This document shows, piece after piece, positions 30,503 through 56,350 of a stretch of 64,000 nucleotides of DNA; within the stretch, counting starts at the first letter, position 1, and the number at the start of each line of letters is the position of its first letter. The notes below the pieces were generated by a model, which made no database searches, had not been told where the DNA came from, and saw nothing but the letters and a program-made list of their open reading frames with translations. The position numbers were made by a program, and so were the translations under genes. The stretch lies in NCBI GenBank assembly GCA_041560205.1, contig JBFFBV010000015.1:1571-65570 (forward strand), read 5' to 3'. This DNA is from Candidatus Sulfomarinibacter sp. Its GTDB lineage: Bacteria > Acidobacteriota > Thermoanaerobaculia > Thermoanaerobaculales > Sulfomarinibacteraceae.

Positions 30503-30510
30503 GGTAGACG

Positions 30511-34368: not shown

Positions 34369-34381
34369 AAGGGAAGGAATC

Positions 34382-36376: not shown

Positions 36377-37308
36377 GTCCGGTGAGCGACCCGATGGTCC
36401 GATTCGAGGGCTTCGCTAAGTGCTACGGCTCCCTCGAAGCGGTCAAACCGCTCGATCTGGAGATCGCGGAGGGGGAGTCCTTCGCGCTGCTCGGGCCCAA
36501 TGGTGGCGGCAAGACGACGGTGCTGCGCGCCCTCGTCGGACTGCAGTCCCCAACCGACGGCAAGATCTTCGTCGCCGACGTCGACATCACCGCACAACCC
36601 GACGAGGTGCGGAGGCTCTTCGCCTACGTCCCGCAACGGGTGACAATGCCCGACGTGCTCACCGCGCACGAGATCCTGACGACCTTCGCCGGGTTGCGGG
36701 GCATGAGCGAAGATCGGGTGGCCGAGGTGTTGAATCTGCTGGCGCTGACGGATGACGCCGATCGACAGGTCGGTGAGTTCTCCGGCGGTATGGTGCAGCG
36801 CCTCGGGCTCGCCGCAGCACTGCTCGAAGAGGTTCCCCTCCTGGTGTTGGACGAGCCGACCCTCAATCTCGACCCGCAGGGCATCGACAGCCTGCACCGG
36901 GTGCTCACCGAGCTCAACAACCGGGGCACGACCATTATCTTCTCGTCCCACAGCATTCACTCCGCCGTCCAGCTCGCCGACAGGGTCGGCGTCATGGTCG
37001 AGGGCGCTCTCGTGGTGTCGGAGCCGGTCGCGAAATTTCAGGCCGAGGTCACCCGCCAGACGACGGTCCGGGTGGTCCTCGACCGGCTCGATGACGCGAT
37101 TCTCCACGCGGCCCAAAAAGCCGGCGCCGATGTGCGCGAGTGCAACGCGACCCACGTGTCGTTCCGGGCCTTGCCGGAGGCGAGGCTCGAGGTGATTCGG
37201 GCGATCGAGAAGGCCGGAGGCACGATCGAAGAGTTCCACACCGAGGCGCCGGGTTGGGAATCGCTCGTGCAGACCCATTTCAACGGCGGGGGAGAGAGGC
37301 ATGAATGA
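36373..37308 (+). CDS. nosF: NosF ABC-type ATPase
   Basis: ATGA overlap with nosD. Walker A GPNGGGKTT, signature SGGMVQR, Walker B LLVLDEP. Confidence 0.88.
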   Translation: MSPVSDPMVRFEGFAKCYGSLEAVKPLDLEIAEGESFALLGPNGGGKTTVLRALVGLQSPTDGKIFVADVDITAQPDEVRRLFAYVPQRVTMPDVLTAHEILTTFAGLRGMSEDRVAEVLNLLALTDDADRQVGEFSGGMVQRLGLAAALLEEVPLLVLDEPTLNLDPQGIDSLHRVLTELNNRGTTIIFSSHSIHSAVQLADRVGVMVEGALVVSEPVAKFQAEVTRQTTVRVVLDRLDDAILHAAQKAGADVRECNATHVSFRALPEARLEVIRAIEKAGGTIEEFHTEAPGWESLVQTHFNGGGERHE

Positions 37309-38074
37309 GCATGGCCGCGCACCGACCCGGACCGCACATGCGATCGCCATCGTGCTGCTGCCGGTGATCGCCGTTGGGTGCGTCGGCGAGCCGACACCAC
37401 AGATCACGAGCGGCATCGACGGTTGCGCGAGCTGCGGTATGGTGATCGACCGTGGCAACGAGGCCGCCGGGTGGGTCGACGGACGGGAGTTCATGCCATT
37501 TTGCTCCCCCGGCTGCCTGCTGACCGAGTACGATGCCCTGCGCCACTCGGACCGTCCGAAGCCGCAGACCCTGTTCTTCGCCGACTACAACTCCGGCGCC
37601 TTCTCGACCTCGGCCGAGACCGCATTTCTGCTCACCGACCACGTGCCGACGGTGATGAGTGGACGCGTGGTCTGCTTCGGCTCACTGGCCGCCGCCGACG
37701 CCATGCGCCAGCACGACGACGAGACCGTCACCGACTGGACCGGCTTCCGCATCCGACGTGGAACTCCGGACACGGTCATCGAGGCGGTCTTCGGACCCGA
37801 CGGCATGGTTCCCGATAGCGTCGTCGCGAACAAGGGCGATATCGTCCTGTGGCGTTACTCAGGAGAGGACCTGACCCAAGACATGGCCTGGACCATTACG
37901 GGATATCCGGAGGTCGAGCCTCCGCTCGTGACCGCATCCGGTGAAACAGCCGAGGTCAGGTTCATGGCGACGCGGCCCGGCGCGGGTTTCCCGATCGAGC
38001 GTGCCACCGGCGGCAAGCCGCTCGGCATGCTCAAGGTGAGCGGCGCCCACACCCTGGACGAGGCGGCCCAATGA
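37301..38074 (+). CDS. nosL: NosL copper-chaperone lipoprotein with about 100-aa C-terminal extension
   Basis: Lipobox AVGC. The NosL core is DGCASCGMVIDRGNEAAGWVDGREFMPFCSPGCLL. Residues from about 150 to 257 are additional and look cupredoxin-like in beta-strand pattern but contain no Cys or His. Confidence 0.75.
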   Translation: MNEHGRAPTRTAHAIAIVLLPVIAVGCVGEPTPQITSGIDGCASCGMVIDRGNEAAGWVDGREFMPFCSPGCLLTEYDALRHSDRPKPQTLFFADYNSGAFSTSAETAFLLTDHVPTVMSGRVVCFGSLAAADAMRQHDDETVTDWTGFRIRRGTPDTVIEAVFGPDGMVPDSVVANKGDIVLWRYSGEDLTQDMAWTITGYPEVEPPLVTASGETAEVRFMATRPGAGFPIERATGGKPLGMLKVSGAHTLDEAAQ

Positions 38075-38898
38075 GGTCGGCGGTACTGCAGATCGCGCAC
38101 CAGGAGTTTGCACTCCACCGACGCAACCGCTGGGTCGTTTCTTTTGCGATCCTGTTCGCCTCACTCAGCCTCGCGGTCGCGTACTTCGGAATGATCACCT
38201 CCGGCTACACGGGCTTTCAGGATTTCGTCCGTACCTCGGCCAGCCTGATCAACCTGGGCGGGTTTCTGCTGCCGCTTTTCGCGCTGCTGCTCGGGGTCTT
38301 CAGCTTCCTCACCGATCGCGAGTATCTCGAAATCCTCGCCACCCAGCCCGTTTCCCGCCGCGGCATCCTGCTCGGAAAATACCTCGGTCTGTTGATCTCG
38401 GTCCTCGCGGCCGCCGCCCTCGGTTTCGGTCTCCCCGGCGTGGTGATCGCGACCGCAATCGGCGTCGAGGGCGCCGGGACCTACCTCGTGGTCGTGTTCT
38501 TTTCCTGTCTGCTGGCGGCCGTCTTCACGGGGTTGTCGGTCCTCATCGCGCTGCTCGCCGGACGACGACCGGTCGCACTCGGCGTCGCGGTCGGTGTGTG
38601 GATCGTCTTCGAGCTCGTCTATGGGCTGCTGATGTTGGCGACAACCCTGTACCTGCCACCAGCAATCGCGAAAAACGTGCTGCTCGTCGGTCTCGGCGGC
38701 AATCCGATCGACGTCGTACGGGTGCTCTGTCTGCTCGAGGTCGGAGGCCCACACCTCTTCGGCCCGGCCGGGGCGACCCTGGTCAAACTCACCGGGTCAA
38801 GCGCTGTCACCATGGTCATCGGGCTCGCTCTCATCGGCATATGGATCGTGACCCCGGTGCTTCTGTCCATCCGGGTATTTCAGAGGCAAGACCTCTGA
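38071..38898 (+). CDS. nosY: NosY ABC-2 type permease
   Basis: ATGA overlap with nosL. Six-TM ABC-2 permease pattern. Operon context with nosD and nosF. Confidence 0.85.
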   Translation: MRSAVLQIAHQEFALHRRNRWVVSFAILFASLSLAVAYFGMITSGYTGFQDFVRTSASLINLGGFLLPLFALLLGVFSFLTDREYLEILATQPVSRRGILLGKYLGLLISVLAAAALGFGLPGVVIATAIGVEGAGTYLVVVFFSCLLAAVFTGLSVLIALLAGRRPVALGVAVGVWIVFELVYGLLMLATTLYLPPAIAKNVLLVGLGGNPIDVVRVLCLLEVGGPHLFGPAGATLVKLTGSSAVTMVIGLALIGIWIVTPVLLSIRVFQRQDL

Positions 38899-39377
38899 TG
38901 GTCGCTGCGAGAACGGCCCGCGTTCGGACCTTGACGTCGGCTGTTCTCGCGTTCCTCATCGCGCTGCCGGTTCTTCAGTTCCCCCCTCTCGGCTCGGCTG
39001 TAGTGACATCGAAGCCGCGGACGACGGTCACGATGTCGTGCGTCGGCTGCTGTGGTTCGAACTGTCAATGCGCCGGCGACTGCTGCGGCGACACCCATGT
39101 CGAGAAGTCGAACCCGGCGCCACCCGCTTGGTCTGTAGCCGAACGAGTTTCACGGGATCGCGATTGCCAGCGGGGCGGCTGGTTGCTGCCCACCGCCACC
39201 ACGAGCTTCCAGCCATGGACCCGGTCCCCCAGAGCACTCCGGCTCGGGATGACGCGGATTCACCTCGTGGAATCGCTCGAGGTCATGTGCCGGTGGCGGC
39301 GCCCGGCGATCTCGCAGAGCAATCCACGTGCCCCGCCGAGCAGCGGCCCCTCGCCCATCGATCGTCTCATCGGTTGA
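38898..39377 (+). CDS. Hypothetical Cys-rich exported or membrane-anchored small protein
   Basis: ATG shares one base with the nosY stop (TGATG). N-terminal RxR plus hydrophobic helix LTSAVLAFLIALPVL, then CVGCCGSNCQCAGDCCGD (8 Cys in 18 residues). Third-codon positions are mostly G/C along the whole ORF. The distal half is Arg/Pro-rich and less convincing. Confidence 0.45.
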   Translation: MVAARTARVRTLTSAVLAFLIALPVLQFPPLGSAVVTSKPRTTVTMSCVGCCGSNCQCAGDCCGDTHVEKSNPAPPAWSVAERVSRDRDCQRGGWLLPTATTSFQPWTRSPRALRLGMTRIHLVESLEVMCRWRRPAISQSNPRAPPSSGPSPIDRLIG

Positions 39378-39457
39378 TCGTTCCACAACGCTGCCCGGTG
39401 CCGGCTCCAGCAGGCCACCGATGGCAAACCGTGTCTGGAACAGCGAAGGGAGAGCTC

Positions 39458-41617
39458 ATGCAAGGGAAGGAGCCTCTATCGTGTCGATTGCGCGTGGCGT
39501 CGATCGTCGTCTGCCTCGCGGCGGTGCCACCGTTTGCTGTCGCGGACGATGAACAGCCGCCTCGCAACCCGGAGGCGCTCACTCAGAGTGAAGAAAAAGC
39601 GGCGCCGATTCCGATCGTCCGCGCCGAAATCGAAGTATTTGGAAAAATCGCCAAAACCCCGGCTGTCACGACCCTGGAGGCAGCCGATCTTCGCAGCGGC
39701 CAGTCGCGAGATGCCGGTGACCTGTTGCGTATCGCACCGGCCGTCAGCTCCGGGCGGATGGGAGGCCACGGACTCGACCCACGAATCCGTGGCCTCGGAG
39801 AATCAAGCATCCGCGTCCTGATCGACGGCGCCGAGATCCATGGTGGATGTCCGAACCGGATGGACCCGCCATCGTCCTTTGCGGCCGCCGAAAGTTACGA
39901 CCAAGTCGTCGTGGTGCGCGGTGTGCAGACGCTTCGCTACGGGACCGCGCCCGGCACCGTGCTGTTCGAGCGGCTTCCCGTTCGATTCTTCGACGACAGC
40001 TGGTGGCGCGCCTCCGCCAACGCGGTTGCCGGCACCTCCAACGACGGTCCGGCGTTCGGAATCAGCGCCGCTGTCGGCACCTCGAAGTTCTCGTTCGATA
40101 TTTCGGGCGATCGTCTCAAAATGGACAGCTACATCGATGGCAACGGCGACGAGGTGGCGTCTGCATTTGACAGCGTCAACGGCGCTCTCGCCCTTGGCTG
40201 GACGCCGGACGCTCTCACCTCGGTTCGTCTTTCGTACGAGCTCAATCGAACGGTTGACGCCCTCTACGGCGGCGCGGCGATGGACAGCCCGGATTCGGAG
40301 ACCGATGCTGTCCGCTTGAGGTTTCGTCGCGATGCCGGCGACGGTGTCGTCGGCCAAATTCGGGGAGACCTCTACTGGACCGACGTGTCGCACGTGATGG
40401 ACAACTTCTCGCTGCGAGAATGGACGGCGCCGATGGCCATGAGCGCACCATCCACGTCGAAATCCACTGGCGGTCGCCTGTGGGTCGATATCGATCCGAC
40501 CGAGCGATTGGAGCTCTCCGCGGGTCTCGACCTCGCCCACAACGATCGGCAGGCGCTTCGCTTTGCCGGTCCAAACCCGGACAGCGTTTTGATGCTGCAG
40601 TCGGTGCTCTGGCCCGAGGTCGACCTCGAACAAAACGGTCTGTTCGTCGAGGGTCGGATGGGCGTCGGAGCCGCCAGCGCACTACGATTCGGCCTCAGGG
40701 GCGACCGCTTCAACGCCAAAGCCGCCGCAAAGGATGTCAAGCCGGCGGGTATGAGCCCCACTCCACGGCAGCTCTGGGAGAGCTATTACGGTCCTGTCGA
40801 AGACAGCTGGGAGCAGCATATCGTCGGTGGTTTCGCCCGCTACGAACACCGTCTGTTGGCACCCAGAATCGGCTTCTTCGCGGGCGTCAGCCGGACTGCC
40901 CGGGCGGCCGATACGACCCAGCGGTTCATGGCCGGCAACAGTTCGATCGCGCCCAAACGGTGGGTTGGCAACCCGCTCCTCGAGGTCGAGATCCACAACC
41001 AAATCGACCTCGGGATCGAGTATGCGGGCTCGACCGGCGATTTCGAGGTGGCGGTCTTCGCCGATGACGTGGACGGCGCGATCCTCCGTGACCGCGCCCA
41101 CGGCCAGCCGGGCATCTTCAAAAACGACAACGCCACGATCTACCGCAACATCGAGGCTCGGAGACTGGGAGCAGAAATCGTGGGCTCCTGGCGAATCGGA
41201 CAGGCCTTCCACGTCGGCGGTGATGCGGCCTTCGTCTGGGCCCAGAATACGACCGATGACCGGCCGATCGCTCAGACACCGCCACTCGAAGGGAGCCTTT
41301 TCGCATCGTGGGTGAGCGGCCGCTTCAGAGCTTCAAGCGCCGTGCGCTGGGCGGCGGAGCAGACGCGAGTCGACGACAATCCCGTGACCGGCAGCGGTCT
41401 CGATGTCGGTCAGACTCCGGGCTGGGTGATCCTCAACCTGTCCGGTCAGGCACGTCTCGGTCTCGGGTTCGGGTTGCTCGCCGGTGTCGACAACGCGTTC
41501 GATCGGGCCTACGCCTATCACCTCAACCGCGACAACTTCTTCGACCCCGCACCGGTGCAGATCAACGAACCCGGCCGCACCTTCTGGCTCCGCCTCCGCT
41601 GGTCGGGCAATGGATGA
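39458..41617 (+). CDS. TonB-dependent outer-membrane copper receptor (OprC/NosA-like)
   Basis: ATG 39458 after GAAGGGAGAG, with a signal peptide. Plug motif IDGAEIHGGCPNRMDPP contains CxxxM, and SHVMD (HxM) lies about 181 residues later. This is the spacing I recall for the OprC copper site. The ORF-track extension to 39038 is rejected. Confidence 0.85.
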   Translation: MQGKEPLSCRLRVASIVVCLAAVPPFAVADDEQPPRNPEALTQSEEKAAPIPIVRAEIEVFGKIAKTPAVTTLEAADLRSGQSRDAGDLLRIAPAVSSGRMGGHGLDPRIRGLGESSIRVLIDGAEIHGGCPNRMDPPSSFAAAESYDQVVVVRGVQTLRYGTAPGTVLFERLPVRFFDDSWWRASANAVAGTSNDGPAFGISAAVGTSKFSFDISGDRLKMDSYIDGNGDEVASAFDSVNGALALGWTPDALTSVRLSYELNRTVDALYGGAAMDSPDSETDAVRLRFRRDAGDGVVGQIRGDLYWTDVSHVMDNFSLREWTAPMAMSAPSTSKSTGGRLWVDIDPTERLELSAGLDLAHNDRQALRFAGPNPDSVLMLQSVLWPEVDLEQNGLFVEGRMGVGAASALRFGLRGDRFNAKAAAKDVKPAGMSPTPRQLWESYYGPVEDSWEQHIVGGFARYEHRLLAPRIGFFAGVSRTARAADTTQRFMAGNSSIAPKRWVGNPLLEVEIHNQIDLGIEYAGSTGDFEVAVFADDVDGAILRDRAHGQPGIFKNDNATIYRNIEARRLGAEIVGSWRIGQAFHVGGDAAFVWAQNTTDDRPIAQTPPLEGSLFASWVSGRFRASSAVRWAAEQTRVDDNPVTGSGLDVGQTPGWVILNLSGQARLGLGFGLLAGVDNAFDRAYAYHLNRDNFFDPAPVQINEPGRTFWLRLRWSGNG

Positions 41618-41968
41618 GGAGGATCATCGAGGGATATCTTCGACAGGTACTGCACGAGGCGCAGGAAACTCCGGCGCACACTCTATTCACCCCCTTCTCT
41701 CAGAAAGGCCCGGCGGGCCGTGCCCGAGGAACCTCTTGTGTGACCCATGGATCCGGTTTACCTGTCGCCCATCTTCTCGGTCGAACGCGCAAAGGGCCGA
41801 CGAGGTCTCCGAGGGCGCAGGCCCACTGGGGCGCTGAAGGCGCGCTGCGACCGGGGACTGACGGGTCGACAAGATACCGCTCTTGGAGAACCGGCGGACC
41901 GAGCGCGCGAGGCCGAGATCTCTGATCGCGGTCGTGGGCCGTCAGTCGGGCACGGCAACGGGCTGGAG

Positions 41969-43270
41969 CTAGTACAGAGGAAACTTGGCGGTCAGGGCGT
42001 GGACTTCGGCTTTGACGGCTTCCATCTCTGCGGAGAAGGCCGCCATCTTGGCCTCGTCCTCCTTGTCCTCGTCGGCCCGCAGGACGCGATCGATCAACTC
42101 GCCGATCTTTTCCATCTCCGCAGGGCCCATGCCGCGGGTCGTAATGGCTGGAGTGCCGATACGAAGACCGGAGGCGATGTAGGGTTTTCGGGTGTCGAAG
42201 GGCACGGTGTTCTTGTTGACGGTGATGTCGGCCAGCCCCAGCCAACGCTCGGCCTTCTTGCCGGAGATGAAGTCGGCACCGAGGTCGATCAGGAAGAGAT
42301 GGTTGTCGGTGCCGCCGGAAACGATCCGCCAGCCGCGCTTCTTGACCGCTTCACACAGTGCCGCCGCGTTCTCGATCACACACCGCTGGTACGCCTTCCA
42401 CTCGGGCTGCATGGCCTCGGCGAAGGCAACCGCCTTGGCGGCGATGACGTGCATCAGCGGTCCACCCTGGATCCCTGGGAAGAGGGCCTTGTCGATCGCC
42501 TCGGCCCAGTCGGCGCCGCAGAGGATGATGCCGCCGCGCGGGCCTCGCAAAGTCTTGTGGGTGGTCGAGGTCGTGAAGTGGCAGTGGGGCACCGGCGATG
42601 GGTGGAGGTCGGCCGCGACGAGCCCGGCGATGTGAGCGATGTCGGCCATCAGCAAGGCGTCGGCTTCGTCGGCAATGGCCCGCAGACGCTCGAAATCTAT
42701 CGTCCGCGGGTAGGCGGACGCGCCGCACACGATGAGCTTGGGTTTGTTCTCGAGCGCGAGCTCCCGCAGGCGCTCGTAGTCGATGGTCTCGCTCTCCTTG
42801 TCGACGCCGTAGGCCACGACCTCGAACTCTTTGCCCGAGTAGTTGAGTGGATGGCCGTGGGTCAGATGGCCGCCGTGGGTGAGGTCCATACCGAGCATCG
42901 TGTCGCCCGGCTGCATGACAGCCAGGTAAACCCCCATGTTGGCCTGCGCGCCGGAGTGGGGCTGGACGTTGGCGTGCTCGGCGCCGAAGAGTTCTTTAAC
43001 GCGCTCGCGGGCGAGATCTTCACCGACGTCCACGTACTGACACCCGCCGTAATAGCGGCGGCCGGGATAGCCCTCGGCGTACTTGTTGGTCATCACGGAA
43101 CCCATGGCGGCCAGCACCGCCGGCGACACGAAGTTCTCCGACGCAATCAGCTCGAGGCCCTCGTTCTGGCGGCGCCGTTCATCCTCGAGCGCCTGCGCGA
43201 CGGGCGGATCGGCCGCCGCCACGAGCTGGTCATGAACCGAAAAGAACTGCTCCTTGAGGCTGTCGGCCAT
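41969..43270 (-). CDS. glyA: Serine hydroxymethyltransferase
   Basis: ATG 43270 shares a base with the rpiB stop. [30 protein letters not shown] and [12 protein letters not shown] (PLP Lys) motifs. Confidence 0.95.
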
Positions 43271-43701
43271 CAATCCTCCCGCTCGATTTTTTCGACCCGC
43301 CGTTGGTGACGACCACCCTCGAACGGGGTTTCGAGAAAGATGTGCACAACCTGTTCCGCCACGCCCGACCCGGTCGACCGCGCACCGACGCAGAGCACGT
43401 TGGCGTCGTTGTGGCGGCGCGCCATCTCGGCGGTAAACGCGTCGTGACACAACGCCGCCCGCACCTGCGGATAGCGGTTGGCGGCCAGGCTCATGCCGAT
43501 TCCGGTGCCGCAGATGAGGATGCCTCGCTCGGCGTCGCCGGCCACCACCGCCCGCGCCACGGCGTGCGCGAAGTCCGGATAGTCGACCGAAGAGGTATCG
43601 GATGGACCGAGATCGCGCACCTCGTGTCCCGCTTCGCGGACGAGCTCGACGACCCGTGCTTTCAGATCGACTCCGGCATGGTCCGACGCGATGACGATCA
43701 T
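43270..43701 (-). CDS. rpiB: Ribose-5-phosphate isomerase B
   Basis: 143 aa with [23 protein letters not shown] and NVLCVGAR motifs. Confidence 0.92.
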
Positions 43702-47171: not shown

Positions 47172-47399
47172 TCAACCACCGGATTCTTCACTTTCGAGAT
47201 CGTTCGGGATCCCGAGGCGTTGACAGGCCGCATCGTACATTTGCCTGGCCGCCTTCTGGGCGTTCTGCAACTCGGAGATCTTTTCTTTCACCTTGCCGAG
47301 CTCGACCTGAATCTGTCCCTCGAGGTCCTGAATTTCTTTCTTGGTCTGCTCGAGCGCGTCCTCGTAGAATTTTCTCTGGGCATCTGTCAAGCCAGACAT
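47172..47399 (-). CDS. Small coiled-coil protein
   Basis: 75 aa with a heptad-rich sequence. GGGAGG RBS 6 nt upstream. Starts 13 nt after the kinase-fusion stop. Confidence 0.6.
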   Translation of the reverse strand: MSGLTDAQRKFYEDALEQTKKEIQDLEGQIQVELGKVKEKISELQNAQKAARQMYDAACQRLGIPNDLESEESGG

Positions 47400-47412
47400 C
47401 TCGCCTCCCTGT

Positions 47413-50286
47413 TTACTGGAATTGGAACGGCACCCGGATCGTCACCCACATCCGGACCCTGACACCATCCTTGGTCGCGGGCTTGTAGCGCCAGGTTGTG
47501 ATGGCGTCCTCCGTGGCTTTCTCGAAGCCGACGTTCCGGCCCTCCACTCTGATGATTCGGATCTCTTCCACCGAGCCGTCCACACCGATCAACGCTTCGG
47601 CCTCCACCACGCCCTGCTCGCGATTCCGGCGCGCCATCGGCGGGTAGACCGGCTGCTCTTGATAGATCACGACCGGGGGAACCACGCCCGCACCCCGAAC
47701 CACGATATCGCCCTCACGCACGGATGGGGTCGGCGTCGGCGGGATGGGAGTGGCCGTCGGCGGCAGCGGGGTCGGGGTGTCCGTCGGCACCGGGGTCGGC
47801 GTGTCCGTCGGCACCGGGGTCGGCGTGTCCGTCGGCACCGGGGTCGGAGGGATCGGCGTCGCTGTCGGGAACTCTTCTTCGAGCCGCTTTCGCAGCTCCT
47901 CCTCCTGCTTGGTGATCTCGGCCGCCGCCACCTCGCGCGCCCGCTCGATCAGCTCCTCATCGGACATCAGTCCGACCGTCGGCTCAGGTGTCGGGGTTTC
48001 AGTTGCCGTGACCACGACCGGGACGGCCCTCGCGGTCGGCCGCGGCTGCCCACTCTCACGACCGAAGAAGAACCATCCCCCGGCACCCGCCAACACCACC
48101 ACCAACACCCCGAGGAGCATCCAGAGCCTCTGTCTTCCGGCCCCGGTCGCGGCGCTTTTGAGCTTGAGCCCGGACTCCTCGAGCTCCAGTGAAGGCCTTT
48201 CCGCGGACGGCGGGCGCGCCGACAGCGCCACCTTGAGCTCGTCATCCAGGACCGGGAACTCCTCCGCCTCGACCGGCGGCACGTTGGGAGAGGTTTCGAG
48301 CGGCGATTCGACCACCGGCGTCGTCGGTGGCGGCTCGCGTGGCGCAGGGGGCTTGGCTGGAGGCGGCGCCGATGCGGGCTTCTTGGACTCGGATACCCGT
48401 GGCGCGACGGCCTTCTCGCCCGATTGGGGGCCCTCGAGGAAGGCGACCAGGGCGGAGCTGTCAGCCGACCAGCCCTTCTTTCGCATCACCCGTTCGAGGT
48501 CTCGCCTCATGTCTTCCGCCGATTGATAGCGCTCCTCACGCTCGGCGTTCAGGGCGAGAAACACGATCCGGTCGACGTCGGAGTCGACATCGGGGTTCTT
48601 CATCGACGGCGCAGTGATGATCGGGTCCCGCACCTGCTCGAGGACCGACAGCTCGGAGGTGCCGGTGAAGACCTTTTCGTTGGTCAGCATCTCGAAGAGC
48701 ACCAGGCCGAGGGAAAAAATGTCCGAGCGGTGGTCGATGTCCTTGCCCCATGCCTGCTCGGGCGACATGTACTGCAGCTTGCCCTTGAGGGCACCGGCCC
48801 GGGTCTGGGTCGCCTTGGACGCCGCTTTGGCGATGCCGAAATCGCAGAGTTTGACGTCCCCCTCAAAGGAGATCAGGACGTTTTGCGGCGACACGTCGCG
48901 GTGCACAAGGCCGAGGGCCTGATTGTCGAAATCCCGCTTCTTGTGGGCGTAGTCGAGGGCCGATGCCAGGAGGTCGGTGATGTACAGGGCGAGCTCGATC
49001 GGCATCTTCTGGTCGCGCTCGTGACACTCGGCGAGGATCGAGCGCAGGTCGCGACCCTCGATGTACTCCATGGCGATGTAGTGAGAACGGTCGACCTTGC
49101 CGAGGTCGTAGATATGAATGATGTTGTTGTGGCTGAGCTGGGCGGCGAGTTTCGCTTCATCGATGAACATGCGGACGAACTCGTCGCTGTCGGTCAGCGT
49201 GGAGAGGATTCGCTTGATCGCGACGGTCTTCTGAAAGCCTTCCATTCCAACCATGCGTGCCTTGTAGACATCGGCCATGCCGCCGGTCGCGATGTGCTCC
49301 TCGAGGACGTATTGGCCGAACTGACCGCCCTGCGGCACCGGGCTCTCTGGCGCAATCGGCCGGGAGGTCTCCAGGGGAGGCTTTTTCGCGGCGGGCTGCA
49401 CGGGCTTTTCGGCGGGTGGCGCCGGCTTGGCAGTCGCTGGCGGCGGAACCGGTGGAGCCTTTTCTCGAGCAGGCGGCGAGGAGGCCGATCGCTGCCGCAG
49501 GGCGGCGATATCGAGCCCCGACAAGGTATCCGAGAGCAGCTTGTCGACATCGTCGTCGGTCGACGTGGCCCGGCGCACCGGCGGCGCGGCTTCGGGGCTG
49601 AGGATATCGGAGAGCATCTCGTCGACCGAGGTGTCTGAGAGCTTCGGCGTCGGTTCCGAGGCCGCCGCTTTGACCGGAGGCTTCGATGGTGCCGTTTCGA
49701 CCGGTCGACTCGGCGGCCCCGGCTTGGCGGCCCCCTCCTGAGCGATGTCGGGAGGGGCCTGAACCGGTTGCTGTTCGCCGCCCTCCATGTCCGAGAGGAT
49801 GTCGCCGAAGAGCTCGCTGGATGTGACCTGAGCGTCTTCACCGGAGAGCCCTGCGCTGCGCCGCAGGGTTTCGAGCATCTCCTGCGGTATGGCCTGGGTC
49901 GCAGCGGGGCTCGGCGCACTGCGGATGAGCTCTTCGACCCGGGCGCGAAGCGCTTCGCCCCCGAACGGACGCTCGAGGATGTCCTGAGCGCCGTAACGGA
50001 CCGCATCGTCCTTCGGCTGCTCACCGCGGTAGCCGGACATGAGGATGAGAAAGGGCGTCGCGCGTAGTCCGGCGCGGGCTCGAAGCTGGGTGATCGCGTC
50101 TTCGATCCTCAGATTGGGGAGGACGGAGGTGATGACCACTGCGGCCGGCTCGAAGTTCGCACATCGATTGACCGCTTCATCCATGGTGCTCGTGATCTCG
50201 AGACGAAACTCCGGCCCGGCAAGCGCTTTTCGCACGTGCTCCACGTACCTCGGCTCATACTCGATGACCAGAACATTCGCACTCAT
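47413..50286 (-). CDS. Pseudo-receiver / Ser-Thr protein kinase / TM / Pro-Thr repeat / TonB C-terminal domain fusion protein
   Basis: ATG 50286 (MSANVLVIEYE). The receiver-like fold lacks the acidic pair, the phospho-Asp (VVITSVLPN) and the Lys (ILERPF). Kinase motifs GGMADVYKA, VAIKRI, HRDVSPQNVL, DFGIAK, YMSPE. TM LWMLLGVLVVVLAGAGGWFFF. PTPVPTDT repeats. C-terminus YPPMARRNREQGVVEAEALIGVDGSV...WRYKPATKDGVRVRMWVTIRVPFQFQ is TonB_C. Confidence 0.85.
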   Translation of the reverse strand: MSANVLVIEYEPRYVEHVRKALAGPEFRLEITSTMDEAVNRCANFEPAAVVITSVLPNLRIEDAITQLRARAGLRATPFLILMSGYRGEQPKDDAVRYGAQDILERPFGGEALRARVEELIRSAPSPAATQAIPQEMLETLRRSAGLSGEDAQVTSSELFGDILSDMEGGEQQPVQAPPDIAQEGAAKPGPPSRPVETAPSKPPVKAAASEPTPKLSDTSVDEMLSDILSPEAAPPVRRATSTDDDVDKLLSDTLSGLDIAALRQRSASSPPAREKAPPVPPPATAKPAPPAEKPVQPAAKKPPLETSRPIAPESPVPQGGQFGQYVLEEHIATGGMADVYKARMVGMEGFQKTVAIKRILSTLTDSDEFVRMFIDEAKLAAQLSHNNIIHIYDLGKVDRSHYIAMEYIEGRDLRSILAECHERDQKMPIELALYITDLLASALDYAHKKRDFDNQALGLVHRDVSPQNVLISFEGDVKLCDFGIAKAASKATQTRAGALKGKLQYMSPEQAWGKDIDHRSDIFSLGLVLFEMLTNEKVFTGTSELSVLEQVRDPIITAPSMKNPDVDSDVDRIVFLALNAEREERYQSAEDMRRDLERVMRKKGWSADSSALVAFLEGPQSGEKAVAPRVSESKKPASAPPPAKPPAPREPPPTTPVVESPLETSPNVPPVEAEEFPVLDDELKVALSARPPSAERPSLELEESGLKLKSAATGAGRQRLWMLLGVLVVVLAGAGGWFFFGRESGQPRPTARAVPVVVTATETPTPEPTVGLMSDEELIERAREVAAAEITKQEEELRKRLEEEFPTATPIPPTPVPTDTPTPVPTDTPTPVPTDTPTPLPPTATPIPPTPTPSVREGDIVVRGAGVVPPVVIYQEQPVYPPMARRNREQGVVEAEALIGVDGSVEEIRIIRVEGRNVGFEKATEDAITTWRYKPATKDGVRVRMWVTIRVPFQFQ
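47768..47839. repeat. 3 x 24-bp tandem repeat inside the kinase fusion gene
   Basis: ggggtcgg(g/c)gtgtccgtcggcacc three times, with degenerate copies on both flanks (about 47745-47863). Encodes PTPVPTDT units on the minus strand. Confidence 0.9.
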
Positions 50287-50451
50287 TGCTTCGCCCTCGA
50301 TCTCTCCGATGGTCGAAGAGTCCAAACCTCATTATCGGTGACAGGGGTGCAAAGTCAACCGAGGCAGAGAGGTCCGAGAAATCGCGGGCTATAATGCGGT
50401 CTTCCCCGCAAGGCCACCGCCCGTCACTTGTCGGAGGCACCAGGAGGCGTC

Positions 50452-51875: not shown

Positions 51876-52532
51876 GTGACTGGACAGGTAGCAGAGTATT
51901 TTCGCCAGGGTGGGATCTTCATGTACCCGCTTCTTTTCTTCTCTGTGCTGGCAGCAACCGTGGCCATTGAGCGCTTCATCGTTTTTTCGAAGGCGAAACT
52001 CAATGTCAGCGAGTTCTTGACCAAGATCCGCAAGGCGCTGCTGGTCAACCGCAACGTCAAGGAGGCCATCAAGATCTGCGAGCAGAGCAAGGGCCCAGTC
52101 GCCTCCGTGATGAAGGCCGGCCTGCTGCGATACGGTCACTCTCGAGAGGACATCGAGAAGACCATCGAGAACGCCGCGCTGTATGAGCTCGATCGGCTCG
52201 AGAAGCGTCTCGGCGTGCTGGCGACGACCGCCAACGTGTCGCCGATGCTGGGCTTCCTCGGGACCGTTGCCGGTATGATCAAGAGCTTCGCGACACTCGC
52301 CGAGCAGGGTCTCACCAACCCCGCAGCCGTCGCGGTCGGTATTTCCGAGGCGCTCATCACGACAGCTACCGGTCTCATCATCGCCATCCCGGCGCAGCTG
52401 ATTTACAACTGGTACACCACCAAGATCACGCGCTTTGTGCGTGACATCGAGACGGCCTCGAACATGCTGGTCGAGACCTTCACCGAGATGGACAGCCAGC
52501 GTTATAGCCAGGGAGGCGAGGGCCAGGCCTAG
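51876..52532 (+). CDS. exbB: MotA/TolQ/ExbB proton-channel protein
   Basis: GTG after AGGAGGAGG. Three TM segments. GFLGTVAGM and ISEALITTATGL motifs. Confidence 0.88.
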   Translation: MTGQVAEYFRQGGIFMYPLLFFSVLAATVAIERFIVFSKAKLNVSEFLTKIRKALLVNRNVKEAIKICEQSKGPVASVMKAGLLRYGHSREDIEKTIENAALYELDRLEKRLGVLATTANVSPMLGFLGTVAGMIKSFATLAEQGLTNPAAVAVGISEALITTATGLIIAIPAQLIYNWYTTKITRFVRDIETASNMLVETFTEMDSQRYSQGGEGQA

Positions 52533-52546
52533 AAGGGAGTCCGCAG

Positions 52547-52996
52547 ATGGCACTCATCCGCGGTACACAACGCAAGGATGCAGCACAGATCTTTACCGCA
52601 TCGATGGCGGATATCGTCTTCCTGCTCATCGTGTTCTTCGTGCTCACCTACAAGGTCGAAGTCGACCGCACAAAGATGGACCTTCCCGACACCTGGATTC
52701 GGAACAAGATTCCGGAAAAGGCAGCCGTGATCTCGATCGCTCCGCCCGACGATATGACCGCACCACTGACGGTGCGAGTGTCGACCGGTGAGGAGATGTC
52801 CCTGCCGGTCAGCACCAACGAGGAGGTCGTGACCTTCGCCTCCACCGAGGTGGCGAGGAATCCGCACAAAGAGTTCATTATCAAGGCCGATGAGCAGGTG
52901 CCGTACGAACACGTCGACGCGGTGCTCGATGCGCTCAAACAGTCCAAAGTCAAAAACATCTACCTGCTGTCAGAGCAGAAGACCGTGGACCGGTAG
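52547..52996 (+). CDS. exbD: ExbD/TolR-family protein (copy 1)
   Basis: 149 aa. SMADIVFLLIVFF anchor with conserved Asp, and a periplasmic domain. Confidence 0.85.
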   Translation: MALIRGTQRKDAAQIFTASMADIVFLLIVFFVLTYKVEVDRTKMDLPDTWIRNKIPEKAAVISIAPPDDMTAPLTVRVSTGEEMSLPVSTNEEVVTFASTEVARNPHKEFIIKADEQVPYEHVDAVLDALKQSKVKNIYLLSEQKTVDR

Positions 52997-53008
52997 GCGG
53001 GGGCGACC

Positions 53009-53503
53009 ATGAGGATCAAGAAGAAAGAAATAGCGTCCGAGATCTTCACCGGGTCGATGGCCGACATCTCGTTTTTGCTGATCATCTACTTCATGATCAC
53101 ATCGGCGTTCTCGGCTGATCGCGGTCTCGACTTCGCCCTTCCCGAGGACACCGACACGCCAGAGATCAAGCAGGAGGACTCGATTGACGTCCACGTCCTA
53201 CGCGGCGGTGCGATCGAGGTCGACGCCAAGGGTATTCCTCTCGAGGGACTGCTCCCCTACTGCCTTGAAAAGCTCAAGCAGAATCCCGAGAAACCGGTGA
53301 TTCTGCGCACCGATCCCGACGCCACCTATGGCGACATGATCCGCGTCTTCGACGAGCTGCGTCAGGCCGAAGAAGAGTGGATGGACGGTGATCAACCGCT
53401 CCACATGGACGTCCACGGGAAACCGCTGACCCACATTCAGACCATCTCGATCCCGACTCGACGAGAGATCGAGAACCTGTGGTCGATGCTCGGGATCCAG
53501 TAA
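53009..53503 (+). CDS. exbD: ExbD/TolR-family protein (copy 2)
   Basis: 164 aa with SMADISFLLIIYF anchor. The C-terminal part diverges from copy 1. Confidence 0.85.
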   Translation: MRIKKKEIASEIFTGSMADISFLLIIYFMITSAFSADRGLDFALPEDTDTPEIKQEDSIDVHVLRGGAIEVDAKGIPLEGLLPYCLEKLKQNPEKPVILRTDPDATYGDMIRVFDELRQAEEEWMDGDQPLHMDVHGKPLTHIQTISIPTRREIENLWSMLGIQ

Positions 53504-53514
53504 AGGGGGAAGCC

Positions 53515-54237
53515 ATGAGCGATTCTCCAAAAGCTGCACCGACGAAGCAGGATGACAAGTTGCCGATGACCACGGCCGAGTTGCTCGCCCTCGAGGCGGG
53601 TCAGGACTCCAAGGTCGCCCGGTGGTCTTTCGGCATCGCGGTCATCTTCCATATCATCATCTTCGCCATGCACTGGCCGTCGTTTGCCGGCGGTCTGTCG
53701 GATGCCAAGGAGAAGCGGAGCAAGATCTACGTCGTCAAGCAGGTCAAGTTCAAACAGCCTCCGCGGCGGGAGATGCAGCAGATCCCGAAACCCAAGACCC
53801 AGAAGGTGCCGATCCCCGATCCGACGCCCGACGAGCCGGAGCCGATCCGCGACGAGGATCCCGACGAGGACATCGATTTCGTGCCCGATGACAATCTGGT
53901 TCTCGGCGTTCCGGATGCGCCGCCGCCGCCCGAGCCGGAAGGTCCGATCCGCTTTGTCGTCGGTGGCAATATCACCGAGCCGAAGAAGATCAGCGGACCC
54001 AACCCGGTGTATCCGGAGGCCGCGAGGCGGGCCCGCATTCAGGGCGTTGTGGTTCTGGAGTGCACCATCGGCAAGGATGGTCGGGTGCAGAACGTCAAGG
54101 TCCTTCGTGGCCTGCCTCTCGGTCTGACCGAAACCGCCGTGGACGCTGTCAACAAATGGAGATTCGAGCCTTCGACTCTGAACGGGAAACCGGTGGAGGT
54201 GCTCTACATCCTGACGGTGCGGTTCAACCTGCAGTAA
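53515..54237 (+). CDS. tonB: TonB energy transducer
   Basis: ATG 53515. One TM, a Pro/Glu/Lys-rich rod (PKPKTQKVPIPDPTPDEPEP), and a C-terminal YPEAARRARIQGVVVLECTIGKDGRV...WRFEPSTLNGKPVEV domain. Confidence 0.88.
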   Translation: MSDSPKAAPTKQDDKLPMTTAELLALEAGQDSKVARWSFGIAVIFHIIIFAMHWPSFAGGLSDAKEKRSKIYVVKQVKFKQPPRREMQQIPKPKTQKVPIPDPTPDEPEPIRDEDPDEDIDFVPDDNLVLGVPDAPPPPEPEGPIRFVVGGNITEPKKISGPNPVYPEAARRARIQGVVVLECTIGKDGRVQNVKVLRGLPLGLTETAVDAVNKWRFEPSTLNGKPVEVLYILTVRFNLQ

Positions 54238-54246
54238 TCCTCCACG

Positions 54247-55083
54247 ATGTCGCTGCAAGGTTCTTTGAGCGAGCTCCCGCTGCCGGACGTGATACAACTC
54301 GTCAGCGTTTCCGGTAAGACGGGTGCGTTCGAGGTCCAAAGCGACGACGCCGAGGGCAAGATCTTTCTCAAAGACGGACACATCGTCGATGCCCTCGTCG
54401 GTCAGCTCCGTGGTGACAGCGCGGTCTACGAGATGGCCATCTGGTCACAGGGGACCTTCTCCTTCAACCCGGGAGAGCAGACCGATCAGGTCACCATTCA
54501 CGTGTCGAATGCCAGTCTCATGATGGAGGCGGCCCGACGCCTTGACGAGTGGCGTGTCCTGTCACGCAAGATTCCTTCGCTGGATCTGGTGCCGTACTTC
54601 ACCACCCGCGAGCAGGGCTCCGATCAGGTCACCCTGAGCCCGCAGGAGTGGATCCTGGTGACGAGGATCAACGGAGAACACACCATCGAGGAGATCGCCC
54701 GCGAGCTCAAGTGGGCGCCATTCGACGTGTCCAAGCTCCTCTTCGGAATGATCACCACCGGACTGGTCGCGCTCGGCAACCCGGGAGAGCCCGCGCTCGG
54801 CGCCCAGAGATGGAAGGTTGGACCGAGCCCGGTGACGCTGCTCGGTCTGGCCGAAAGAATCCGCTCGGTCGCGCTCGACGTTGTCGGTTCGGGGGGTGAA
54901 CGGACGATCGAGAAACAGTACACTTCTGCGCGAACCATGATCGAGCGGGGGGAGGGGTTCAACGCCCTCCGCGAAATGGTCGAGCAGCACACGAAGGCTA
55001 TCTCGCTGCTCAAGGGATCGGACACCGCAGCGATGTTCGACGAGCAGGTCAGGCCCTTGCTCGGCGAGGTGCAACAAAGTTGA
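54247..55083 (+). CDS. DUF4388-domain protein
   Basis: N-terminal GSLSELPLPDVIQLVSVSGKTGAFEV...IFLKDGHIVDA matches the DUF4388 pattern as I recall it. A central HTH-like segment and C-terminal helical region follow. Confidence 0.7.
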   Translation: MSLQGSLSELPLPDVIQLVSVSGKTGAFEVQSDDAEGKIFLKDGHIVDALVGQLRGDSAVYEMAIWSQGTFSFNPGEQTDQVTIHVSNASLMMEAARRLDEWRVLSRKIPSLDLVPYFTTREQGSDQVTLSPQEWILVTRINGEHTIEEIARELKWAPFDVSKLLFGMITTGLVALGNPGEPALGAQRWKVGPSPVTLLGLAERIRSVALDVVGSGGERTIEKQYTSARTMIERGEGFNALREMVEQHTKAISLLKGSDTAAMFDEQVRPLLGEVQQS

Positions 55084-55117
55084 GTCGGAACTCGTTAGAA
55101 ATATTGGAGGCACGAAA

Positions 55118-56350
55118 ATGAAATCGAGGGTCAGCCGGGCAGCGATCGCTGGGGCAGTGGCGTCGATTATCCTCGCAGCGACGGTGACGGCGCACGCGGA
55201 GTGGAACAAAGGCCTCGAGGCCTACAAGCAAAAGGACTGGGCCAACGCGGTCAAGGAGTTCGAGGAGGTCACCAAGACGAACCCGGACTACGCCGGCGGC
55301 TACTACATGTTGGGGGCCTCTCAGCGCGCCTTCGGCCAGTTGAGCCCGGCGATCGCCAGCCTTCGCAAGGCGGTCGAGCTCGACGGCAGCCAGGCGTCCT
55401 ACAAAATCGCCCTCGGTCAGGCCCTTTTGCAGGCGAACCAATACCAGAATGCCTACGAGCTCTTGAAACCGCTGAACCTGAGCTCGATGGACGCGTCGCA
55501 CCGTTCGAGCTACGCGCTCCTCTTCGCACAGGCCGCGACCAAGACCAATCGCCCCGGCGAGGCTATCGGCGTGCTGACGACTCAGGTACGAGCTGACTCG
55601 ACGAACTACCGCTTGCAGCAGGCTCTCGGCTCCGCCTACACCGCCAACGGTGATGAGGCGAAGGCCTTCGAGGCCTTCAAGAGGGCCTACGAGCTCAATT
55701 CCAAAGACGCCACCAGCGCCCGCAACGCCGTGCGCGCAGCGGTATCGGTCGCGCGGAGGTCGAGCTCGGATTCGAGTAAGGCCAACTACTACTCGCAGGC
55801 AGGTCAGATCGCGGACCGACTGGCCAACGCCTCACCGACTTTCGAGCACCAGCTCCTCGCCGGCGAGGCCTGGCTCGGCGCCAAGCAGTATCAGAAGGCA
55901 CTGGGCTGGTTCGACAAGGCGAGGGCGCAGCAGTCCAACAACGCGCTCGTCTACTACTACGCTGCGCAATGCAAGACGCAGATGAACCAGCTCAACCCGG
56001 CGATCGCCGACCTCCAGCAAGCCCTCAAGATCGGCGCCTCCGGCAAGCTCCGCAATCAGGTCTACAACCAAGGCGGTTACATCTACGACAAGAAGAAGGA
56101 ATACAACAACGCCATCCAGTGGTACCAGGAGGCCGGCAACAGCAGAATGGTCCGCGAGATGCAGGGGAAAAGGGATGCCGCTGCGCAGAATCTCCAGGCA
56201 CAACAGGAGTGCGCCGAGTTCAAGCGGAAGATCGACGCTCTCAAGCTCCAGGTCGACGAGCTCGAGAAGCTCGGTGACATCGAAAACGCCAAGCTGCTCC
56301 AGGAACAGCTCCCCGGTCTCGAAAAGCAGTACAACGAGAATTGCGGCTGA
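55118..56350 (+). CDS. Secreted TPR-repeat protein with C-terminal coiled coil
   Basis: Signal peptide ending AHA|E. At least six 34-aa TPR-like units (WANAVKEFEEVTKTNPDY..., etc.). Gln/Lys/Glu-rich coiled-coil tail. Confidence 0.8.
   Translation: MKSRVSRAAIAGAVASIILAATVTAHAEWNKGLEAYKQKDWANAVKEFEEVTKTNPDYAGGYYMLGASQRAFGQLSPAIASLRKAVELDGSQASYKIALGQALLQANQYQNAYELLKPLNLSSMDASHRSSYALLFAQAATKTNRPGEAIGVLTTQVRADSTNYRLQQALGSAYTANGDEAKAFEAFKRAYELNSKDATSARNAVRAAVSVARRSSSDSSKANYYSQAGQIADRLANASPTFEHQLLAGEAWLGAKQYQKALGWFDKARAQQSNNALVYYYAAQCKTQMNQLNPAIADLQQALKIGASGKLRNQVYNQGGYIYDKKKEYNNAIQWYQEAGNSRMVREMQGKRDAAAQNLQAQQECAEFKRKIDALKLQVDELEKLGDIENAKLLQEQLPGLEKQYNENCG

Follow-up and report, generated by a model that had tools for sequence, protein, structure and literature searches.

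The subject of this report is a pair of genes in a stretch of 64,000 nucleotides from the acidobacterium Candidatus Sulfomarinibacter sp. (GenBank assembly GCA_041560205.1, contig JBFFBV010000015.1, positions 1,571 to 65,570 of the forward strand). The whole of this stretch is called the window, and positions are counted from its first letter. The larger gene encodes a protein of 957 amino acids (aa), which joins a receiver domain without its phospho-acceptor aspartate, a Hanks-type Ser/Thr kinase, one transmembrane (TM) helix and a TonB_C domain; the smaller gene, directly downstream, encodes a protein of 75 aa, called small75 below. Both had been described in an earlier interpretation of the same DNA, which was made from the letters and their open reading frames (ORFs) without database searches and is referred to here as the sequence-only reading. 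The features of the pair are listed below with the methods by which they were assigned.

47413..50286, (-): kinase gene (pseudo-receiver, Hanks kinase, TM helix, TonB_C), 957 aa, stop codon at 47413-47415
49912..50286, (-): aspartate-less (pseudo) receiver, aa 1-125 (Pfam, PDB alignment, AlphaFold)
49327..49911, (-): Pro/Ala-rich cytoplasmic linker, mostly disordered, aa 126-320 (conservation profiles, AlphaFold)
49783-49827, (-): linker motif 1, V154-E168, LTSxx[IL]F[GS]D[IV]L (conservation)
49597-49626, (-): linker motif 2, V221-S230 (conservation)
49513-49548, (-): linker motif 3, V247-L258, VDK[LM]LSDTLSGL (conservation)
48478..49323, (-): Hanks-type Ser/Thr kinase domain, PknB-like, aa 322-603 (Pfam, PknB alignment, Foldseek)
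48064..48129, (-): single TM helix, aa 720-741 (Kyte-Doolittle, AlphaFold)
47719..47961, (-): periplasmic spacer, consisting of a charged helix, aa 776-805, and a Pro/Thr rod, aa 806-856 (AlphaFold, Tandem Repeats Finder, TRF)
47416..47685, (-): TonB_C domain, aa 868-957 (Pfam, NCBIfam, 1u07, AlphaFold)
47172..47399, (-): small75, a 75-aa cytoplasmic single-helix protein of coiled-coil type (ORF, ribosome-binding site AGGGAGG, AlphaFold)
50331..50358, (-): promoter-like site TTGACT-16 nt-GATAAT, 45 nt upstream of the start codon (consensus scan)

A kinase family with a receiver-like and a TonB_C domain

The kinase gene occupies a single unbroken ORF, which spans 47413-50325 (-) in the ORF list of the window, and the ATG at 50286 (MSANIL...) is its start codon, as supported by 114 of 114 near-full-length homologues in the alignment. 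From the N- to the C-terminus, the order is aspartate-less receiver, disordered linker, PknB-like Hanks kinase, one TM helix, helix plus Pro/Thr rod, and TonB_C. For the promoter-like site, one occurrence was found against 0.4 expected in the consensus scan, and it is to be read as a pattern match only.

The same architecture has been found in a large number of independent sequences. A homologue of identical architecture and 100% identity (P0001) tops the homologue list, and a word-indexed search gave at least 120 clusters of this architecture with 50-82% identity. Nearly all of these clusters carry four precomputed Pfam matches, to TonB_C, to Response_reg and to two kinase models that overlap; Response_reg or TonB_C is missing from a few entries, which are fragmentary or shorter, and the named clusters are all annotated as "TonB family protein". 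An exhaustive HMMER search was conducted on 50%-identity representatives, and among the best 150 matches listed, profiles built from the family detected pseudo-receiver, kinase and TonB_C together in 76, most of the others being fragments. A scan of GTDB with the N-terminal region gave 116 relatives, of which 80 were kept; the architecture is conserved in these 80 Thermoanaerobaculia loci, which are labelled as Thermoanaerobaculia, Thermoanaerobaculales, Ca. Sulfomarinibacteraceae or Acidobacteriota, apart from a few metagenome-assembled genomes labelled otherwise, e.g., Holophagae. The closest of the GTDB relatives is that of Ca. Sulfomarinibacter kjeldsenii (81%). A further subgroup, with 80 metagenome loci, and a low-GC subgroup have kept the architecture as well. 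The independent assemblies in which it is found at full length number in the hundreds; they come from NCBI, JGI, ENA and Logan, and complete chromosomes are among them. Four deep subgroups were distinguished in all, two of which lie deeper than the two Thermoanaerobaculia branches, called here the window clade and the divergent branch; the taxonomic labels of the deeper-subgroup clusters are "Acidobacteriota bacterium" and "bacterium", with one contig labelled Acidobacteriota_UBA4820.

These results bear on the danger, named in the sequence-only reading, that separate receiver, kinase and TonB genes were joined by an assembly error or a frameshift. The unusual combination of domains is the sole point in favour of such an artefact; the gene is intact, its ORF is continuous, and its full-length architecture recurs in the clusters and independent assemblies described above, by which the artefact is ruled out and left with practically no probability. 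The gene represents a widely conserved, hitherto unstudied family of Acidobacteriota.

The N-terminal domain is receiver-like in fold and deviates from receivers in its active site. Response_reg (PF00072) of Pfam matches residues 5-117 with 26.5 bits, under the gathering score of 30.2, and the PhoB and KdpE receivers of NCBIfam are weak matches to the N-terminus. A phmmer search with the first 142 residues against PDB detected 37 receiver domains at E <= 0.01 (best 3lte, E = 1.5e-8), and the receivers 3lte and KdpE, matching with E = 1.5e-8 to 1e-6, have provided an alignment at the residue level. In this alignment, the position of the acidic pair is occupied by E9-Y10 and that of the phospho-Asp by T53, the Thr/Ser of beta4 is kept as S84, and the Lys position of beta5 is R106, with the usual Pro next to it. 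The substitutions claimed in the sequence-only reading (EYE for DD, T/S for the phospho-Asp, R for the Lys) are confirmed by this alignment. In the AlphaFold model, the domain has the (beta-alpha)5 fold with a per-residue confidence (pLDDT) of 92-97. It therefore shares the CheY-like fold of receivers and lacks their phospho-Asp, acidic pair and Lys, besides staying below the Pfam cut-off. The domain is an aspartate-less receiver (ALR) as defined in PMC4395418, and on the basis of its residues it is predicted to be incapable of Asp phosphorylation.

The replaced residues follow the subgroups. The EYEPRY motif is invariant in both Thermoanaerobaculia branches, and position 53 is occupied by T in the window clade and by S in 41 of 42 sequences of the divergent branch; position 106 is R in the former and K in the latter. 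Position 53 in the deeper subgroups is mostly Ser, with some Ala or Asn, and Asp in three representatives. One of these deeper subgroups, to which the contig labelled Acidobacteriota_UBA4820 belongs, has the receiver motifs DYEPK...MLPKxHGFE...YKGxKY, and the other has a very degenerate receiver (LILVVEQEARYVERI) and is called here the degenerate-receiver subgroup. In a survey of ALRs, Ser was the third commonest replacement at the phospho-site and regulation by Ser/Thr kinases was speculated upon, and no architecture containing TonB is present in the tables of that survey (PMC4395418).

The sequence-only reading had placed a Pro/Ala linker of about 170 aa after the kinase. This must be corrected: the linker between kinase and TM helix has about 115 aa, and the long Pro/Ala-rich one, of about 195 aa, precedes the kinase and connects it to the receiver. 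Three conserved motifs stand out in the long linker, which may also be written LTSxx[IL]FGDILSD, VDxMLSDIL and VDKLLSDTLSGL, and motif 1 (LTSxx[IL]F) is retained even in the subgroup with the most degenerate receiver. AlphaFold has placed short helices of low pLDDT at residues 156-169, 222-229 and 243-254. A comparison of the three motifs with known motifs gave no match; they may be docking or phosphorylation sites.

In the kinase domain, Pkinase (PF00069) of Pfam covers residues 326-587 with 132.3 bits against a cut-off of 31.7. VAIK, the alphaC Glu (FIDEAK), HRD, N469, DFG and SPE are all present, and they are invariant or nearly so in 69 homologues; the Hanks motifs listed in the sequence-only reading (VAIK, HRDVSPQN, DFG, SPE) could all be read from the translation and the PknB alignment. 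The closest solved kinase is PknB of Mycobacterium tuberculosis (E = 1e-45), with the TQT of the activation loop aligned with T171/T173, and PknB structures are the top matches of the full-length model in Foldseek. The NCBIfam model PknB_PASTA_kin (NF033483) gives 292 bits against a cut-off of 450, and PASTA of Pfam gives no match. The domain is thus predicted to be an RD kinase with PknB-like activation-loop threonines. The catalytic loop HRDVSPQN (aa 462-469, 48880-48903) has Ser in place of the Lys of Ser/Thr kinases (HRDxKxxN), and 122 of about 150 representatives have this Ser, among them proteins in which 2-6 kinase domains stand in tandem; the string "HRDVSP" led to no relevant paper in the literature searched. 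The C-lobe is confident in the AlphaFold model. The N-lobe (aa 325-410, 49060-49320) has a pLDDT of about 40-55 and helices where beta strands are expected, as modelled by AlphaFold2 with the alignment of 69 sequences, and this is probably a failure of the modelling. For the full-length model the mean pLDDT is 68 and the pTM 0.39, and its inter-domain geometry is unusable.

Residues 720-741 contain the sole strongly hydrophobic 19-mer of the protein (Kyte-Doolittle 2.28), and AlphaFold has placed a helix at 718-741. Among 70 sequences of the family, the TM helix is not conserved between the branches and has no conserved motif, and His is absent from all 70; the neighbouring TonB has a His in its membrane anchor. 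Because the N-terminal part of about 720 aa bears the kinase, which needs ATP, and has no signal peptide, an N-in/C-out single-pass topology is implied. This layout, together with the confident TonB_C fold, bears out the periplasmic location which the sequence-only reading had given to the C-terminal part, and its single TM helix and Pro-Thr repeat rod have been recovered as well. The DNA of the rod is a tandem repeat of a 24-nt unit, 3.6 copies with 96% matches, at 47761-47847 (TRF), and the periplasmic helix 776-805 preceding it has a pLDDT of about 88-92. The periplasmic part has about 216 aa here and 188-290 aa across the family, which by simple geometry should be long enough to cross the periplasm.

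The C-terminal domain scores above the cut-offs of both profile collections, with 63.3 bits against the gathering score of 24.6 for TonB_C of Pfam (PF03544, residues 878-955) and 41.1 bits against 27.1 for tonB_Cterm of NCBIfam (TIGR01352). It matches the C-terminal domain of Escherichia coli TonB (1u07, E = 1e-6), keeps the QPxYP motif, and is modelled by AlphaFold with a pLDDT of 92-98. Its identity to the TonB encoded nearby (53479-54237) is 38% over 95 aa, in agreement with the resemblance pointed out in the sequence-only reading. With regard to the characters of TonB itself, the TonB_C domain and the Pro-rich spacer (the rod, aa 806-856) are present; the N-terminal His anchor of the SxxxH type without a cytoplasmic domain is absent, and the TM helix comes only after 720 aa.

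In order to place this domain, a neighbour-joining tree was constructed from 94 TonB_C domains of the kinases and 35 C-termini of neighbouring TonBs. All 94 kinase domains fall inside one clade of 96 leaves, outside which the neighbouring TonBs lie, except for two leaves labelled "TonB", which are probably kinase fragments. Identity is 46% among the kinase TonB_C domains and 32% between them and the TonB of the same locus, and the kinase clade has a signature, P[AT]TK-DGV[RK]V[KR]MW, on the last strands of the domain. The signature region includes the strand by which TonB pairs with TonB boxes, as established by the TonB-BtuB and TonB-FhuA structures. The separate clade and the signature point to one ancient fusion of kinase and TonB_C, and they suggest that selection has fitted the domain to a dedicated and conserved partner of its own.

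The small75 protein and the gene neighbourhood

The small75 gene starts 13 nt after the stop codon of the kinase gene, behind the AGGGAGG ribosome-binding site; the 75-aa coiled-coil ORF of the sequence-only reading, with its strong ribosome-binding site and 13-nt spacing, is therefore upheld, including the helix, which AlphaFold has predicted as one long helix over residues 6-62 with a pLDDT of 91. No Pfam or NCBIfam family was found for the protein, the matches being just coiled-coil noise under the thresholds, and neither a signal peptide nor a TM segment was detected in it. Its 599 homologues (73-79 aa) are all unnamed, and none has a Pfam domain. Identity across the subgroups is 49-60%, which is above that of the receiver domain, and the invariant residues are S/T at position 5, Y12, T19, Y55, C59 and an RLG-x-N motif. 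The N-terminal Ser/Thr recalls ReoM and IreB, the small substrates of PASTA kinases, to which there is no detectable homology.

The gene lies directly downstream of the kinase gene in all four subgroups and was found there in four metagenome contigs. By BLAST, it was detected in 63 of 70 complete loci. Some of the seven misses are due to limits of detection, as the ORF had been called and aligned in at least one of them (L002). The gene is present in 37 of 38 loci of the degenerate-receiver subgroup and in the two loci of the low-GC subgroup; apart from the pair, one of these two has no neighbour in common with the window. The pair is thus retained when the flanking genes change, and kinase and small75 constitute a two-gene module.

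In the window clade, the gene order is TPR < PATAN/DUF4388 < TonB < ExbD < ExbD < ExbB < RuvC < YebC, followed in the opposite direction by kinase > small75 > AccD > FolC > dGTPase. AccD is directly downstream of the pair in 22 of 23 loci, and ExbB is located upstream on the opposite strand, beyond yebC-ruvC, in 14 of 16 (as ExbB-ExbD-ExbD-TonB); the distance of ExbB-ExbD-ExbD from the kinase gene in the window is 1.6 kb. The "ExbB" of this cluster (51876-53503 and 53479-56350) has 111.5 bits with TolQ and 85.5 with ExbB, and both "ExbD" proteins score higher on TolR than on ExbD, all these scores being below the cut-offs; for the TonB_C protein next to them, by contrast, TonB models give a far better match than TolA. 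The cluster resembles the tol-pal loci of proteobacteria in that it is preceded by yebC-ruvC and followed by the TPR gene, to which an OmpA/Pal-like gene is added in other lineages.

A PATAN/DUF4388 (PatA_N) protein is encoded at 54247-55083, between the TonB and TPR genes. PATAN stays by ruvC-yebC and the kinase also in lineages without ExbB-ExbD-TonB, with 26 of 26 loci in one subgroup and 7 of 35 in another, which suggests that its link to the kinase locus is independent of TonB.

A different set of transport genes is found in the divergent branch of Thermoanaerobaculia. There, a periplasmic binding protein (Peripla_BP_2), a FecCD permease and an ABC ATPase follow the pair on the same strand in 35 of 38 loci, and the best named relatives of this importer are BtuF, BtuC and haem/corrinoid ATPases. 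In the examples L083 (12783-15817) and L041 (12873-14086 and 1080-7875), BtuF-like, BtuC-like and haem/corrinoid-type ATPase genes are packed closely behind the pair, and in L083 they overlap by 4 nt. This linkage is seen in two upstream settings, namely OmpA < PATAN < RuvC < YebC and TonB-dependent receptor < Rho, and in the latter accD/folC as well as ruvC/yebC are gone and the importer is still with the pair. TonB-dependent receptors of the CarboxypepD_reg type are located upstream in 24 of 35 loci of the branch; one or two of them stand beyond rho in one lineage, e.g., that at 4738-7875 of L041. Among the hints that the module is functionally tied to TonB-dependent uptake, the persistence of the importer in the Rho-type setting is the strongest.

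In the degenerate-receiver subgroup, PATAN-RuvC-YebC lies upstream in 26 of 26 loci and the small75-AccD-FolC block downstream in 26 of 30, and the importer was found in 0 of 30. The locus is an old, vertically inherited block, which TonB/Tol-type genes enter and leave.

Further clues to a signalling partner or a substrate were searched for. Beside the pair, no sigma or anti-sigma factor was found in the window and loci L041, L045, L057 and L083, nor were cell-surface signalling genes (FecR-like anti-sigma factor, extracytoplasmic-function (ECF) sigma factor, transporter with an N-terminal signalling domain) among the annotated neighbours there. Riboswitches, including that for cobalamin, gave no Rfam match at the gathering score in the window and seven related loci.

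The sequence-only reading had also named a receptor of this genome, at 39458, as a possible partner of the kinase, and this was not sustained. The receptor (39038-41617) is a TonB-dependent copper receptor, as indicated by TIGR01778 with 472 bits against a cut-off of 472.45, and stands at the end of a nosZ-nosD-nosF-nosY cluster; therefore, it belongs to the copper supply for NosZ, and no link to the kinase was found. The region 26493-41617 as a whole is a nitrous-oxide reductase cluster, which also encodes an Fe-S flavoprotein, a cytochrome b, a cytochrome c, an ABC ATPase and an ABC-2 permease, besides the following proteins.

31762-33669: NosZ-like protein of the nitrous-oxide reductase cluster
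34988-36376: NosD of the nitrous-oxide reductase cluster

Other genes of the window have no link to the kinase, i.e., those for the selenocysteine elongation factor SelB (648-3086, (-)), a dCache-containing histidine kinase (16780-18546, (+)) and an APH-family phosphotransferase (60374-61357, (+)). Three sizeable ORFs, as putative genes, at 41747-43309 (+) of 520 aa, 24602-25660 (+) of 352 aa and 61732-63105 (+) of 457 aa, matched no Pfam family at E <= 1e-5 or 1e-6.

Proposed mechanism and rival explanations

We tentatively read the 957-aa protein as a bitopic, envelope-spanning Ser/Thr sensor kinase of the Hanks type, which contacts the outer membrane as a passive reader, and we hold this reading at somewhat less than an even chance. 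The helix and the Pro/Thr rod would carry the TonB_C domain far enough to reach the outer membrane, where it would dock in the manner of TonB, i.e., by beta-strand addition to a segment resembling a TonB box, in a partner that is situated in the outer membrane or faces the periplasm. Because the membrane anchor is without what TonB needs to engage ExbB/ExbD, the protein would not be energised by them and would act passively. Engagement of the partner would alter the way in which the cytoplasmic halves are oligomerised or spaced and thereby control trans-autophosphorylation, as in PknB-type kinases. The pseudo-receiver, taking no phosphate from a histidine kinase, would serve as a dimerisation or regulatory module, and its conserved Thr/Ser at the former phospho-site may be phosphorylated by the kinase of the same protein. 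The small75 protein, presumably co-transcribed, would be the immediate partner, an adaptor or a substrate, with the invariant Ser/Thr 5 as a candidate acceptor. As to the process that is monitored or controlled, the neighbours point to TonB/Tol-type trans-envelope transport (ExbBD-TonB, the BtuFCD-like importer and TonB-dependent receptors). A more specific version, in which the TonB-mimicking domain reads, without energy, the exposure of TonB boxes on a ligand-loaded outer-membrane transporter and converts it into Ser/Thr phosphorylation, the ALR being switched at T53/S53 and small75 relaying the signal onward, appears to us decidedly improbable as a whole.

Several points weigh against the reading as a passive sensor kinase. 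ExbB is near the kinase in 0 of 35 divergent loci and in 13 of 26 of the degenerate-receiver subgroup, and the neighbouring ExbB/ExbD score better as TolQ/TolR. Synteny with the housekeeping genes ruvC, yebC, accD and folC means that the adjacency to transport genes may partly be inherited order, and adjacency within such a frozen block is weak evidence. None of the annotated genes near the pair codes for a PP2C phosphatase, an FHA protein or a transcription factor. Furthermore, the catalytic-loop Lys is replaced by Ser, so that the full catalytic competence of the kinase is an assumption; its N-lobe is poorly modelled by AlphaFold; and the binding partner of TonB_C is putative.

Part of the same evidence would fit a core regulator of the envelope or of cell division in the role of PknB, in which TonB_C would be only an anchor or ruler by which the kinase is tied to the outer membrane, peptidoglycan or an apparatus like Tol-Pal, and the kinase would report on envelope integrity or constriction and not on nutrient uptake. 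The kinase domain is closest to PknB, the pair is kept phylum-wide in one locus by ruvC-yebC and accD-folC, with a synteny that fits this explanation equally well, and the Tol-like scores of the neighbouring ExbB/ExbD, together with a gene order which recalls tol-pal loci, lie in the same direction. In addition, the TonB-like protein SjdR has a role at the septal wall outside transport (PMC8262864). This explanation leaves the BtuFCD-like linkage of the divergent branch without a reason, however, and no TolB-like gene was seen; the scores for TolQ, TolR, ExbB and ExbD are all below the curated cut-offs, and the adjacent TonB_C protein is far better as TonB than as TolA. We consider it rather unlikely. 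Unlikely to a slightly higher degree is the specific model of the sequence-only reading, a Ser/Thr-kinase version of cell-surface signalling, in which TonB_C binds the TonB box of a loaded transporter and turns the kinase on, which then adjusts genes for corrinoid, haem or siderophore-type uptake or the transporter itself. The retention of TonB's QPxYP motif, the importer directly after the pair and the receptors upstream in the divergent branch (35 of 38 and 24 of 35 loci, respectively), the survival of the importer linkage through the rearrangement that removed ruvC/yebC and accD/folC, and the ExbBD-TonB upstream in the window clade argue for it. The window clade, however, has no importer or receptor adjoining the pair, its nearest receptor is the copper receptor of the nos cluster, neither a riboswitch nor another substrate clue was found, no transcription factor is encoded nearby, and the module differs from typical substrate-specific signalling units in that it occupies a single locus, extends through the phylum and is inherited vertically. 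Acidobacteria have many TonB-dependent receptors, and therefore the proximity of one by chance is not rare.

The protein might also be an energised TonB paralogue driven by ExbB/ExbD, whose kinase and pseudo-receiver part regulates or reports the energised state. It has the TonB_C domain, the Pro-rich spacer and the single N-in anchor of TonB, databases call it "TonB family protein", ExbB-ExbD-ExbD lies close by in the window, and its position ahead of ABC importer genes in divergent loci is one that dedicated tonB genes occupy in haem or siderophore uptake operons. Against this, the TM helix has no His in any of the 70 sequences and is unconserved, ExbBD is missing from the locus in most lineages, and a canonical TonB with its His anchor is encoded beside ExbBD; TonB proteins in general are without a cytoplasmic domain (PMC8262864). 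Because of the TM helix and the frequent absence of ExbBD from the locus, coupling of the kinase to ExbB/ExbD appears unlikely, and this paralogue, made unlikely by the TM analysis, is given a very low probability.

Significance and comparison with known systems

What is new here is a receptor-type bacterial Ser/Thr kinase that would have a sensor domain reaching the outer membrane, a pseudo-receiver in cis and a dedicated small partner; no paper on a protein combining kinase and TonB_C was found in the literature searched. Acidobacteria are among the most abundant bacteria of soils and sediments, and their signalling has been little studied experimentally. The label "TonB family protein" hides the kinase and will mislead counts of TonB systems. 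If it is true that TonB_C docks on outer-membrane proteins, the family would show how a diderm couples events at the outer membrane to Ser/Thr phosphorylation, and kinase, pseudo-receiver and small75 would provide a defined system for studying the purpose of ALRs and the use of TonB boxes in sensing as opposed to transport. If the exposure of TonB boxes is what is read, and the ALR is switched at T53/S53, cell-surface signalling would gain a third type next to anti-sigma/ECF and two-component systems, and nature would have provided a receiver domain in which Ser/Thr phosphorylation has replaced that of Asp. Even as a plainer PknB-like envelope regulator with a new anchor, the protein widens the range of sensor domains known for bacterial Hanks kinases.

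In the FecA-FecR-FecI system, an inner-membrane protein reaches an outer-membrane TonB-dependent transporter and passes its occupancy to the cytoplasm. The likeness to the present kinase is one of concept and an analogy only: an anti-sigma factor, an ECF sigma factor and a receptor with a demonstrated N-terminal signalling domain are absent from the window and the related loci examined, and the output here would be Ser/Thr phosphorylation. PpkA with TagQRST, of the threonine-phosphorylation pathway of the H1 type VI secretion system in Pseudomonas aeruginosa, shares the principle of a diderm Hanks kinase whose periplasmic domain receives a signal from the outer membrane or periplasm. The periplasmic domain of PpkA is vWA-like, and its target Fha1 and the phosphatase PppA are encoded alongside, none of which is present at the kinase locus here. 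PknB of M. tuberculosis and the other PASTA-type kinases (StkP of Streptococcus pneumoniae and Stk1 of Staphylococcus aureus) have in common with it an N-in RD kinase, one TM helix and an extracytoplasmic sensor; the present protein differs from them in having TonB_C on a Pro/Thr rod instead of PASTA repeats, an added pseudo-receiver, the Lys-to-Ser change and a diderm host.

With TonB, the protein shares a TonB_C domain with QPxYP, a Pro-rich spacer spanning the periplasm and a single N-in anchor, and it differs by a cytoplasmic signalling part of 720 aa, of which TonB has almost none (PMC8262864), by a TM helix without His and by a separate TonB_C lineage. SjdR, a TonB-like protein of Anabaena, likewise extends unusually far into the cytosol at its N-terminus and functions outside classical transport; it has no kinase, and its TonB-box-binding motif is truncated, whereas the domain here is complete (PMC8262864). 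ALRs such as RitR (PMC4395418) share the fold without the phospho-Asp and keep the Thr/Ser of the Y/T-coupling pair (S84 here), and in the present family one polypeptide unites the ALR with a Hanks kinase and TonB_C. GltJ/AgmX and GltG of the gliding machinery of Myxococcus xanthus share the layout of cytosolic effector domains, one TM helix, a flexible periplasmic region and a TonB-C domain, and the layout of GltJ, which links cytoplasmic signalling to an outer-membrane complex, is a precedent for coupling across the envelope (PMC11135422). The cytosolic part of GltJ consists of ZnR and GYF domains, which bind MglA/AglZ, and GltJ acts with the AglRQS motor; here a kinase takes this place, there are no glt genes, and the NCBIfam model "AgmX/PglI C-terminal domain" is a weak match (19.9 bits against a cut-off of 40). 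By analogy of working principle, GltJ/AgmX, PpkA and FecR-type signalling, the last in concept only, would be the nearest relatives of the present kinase among known systems.

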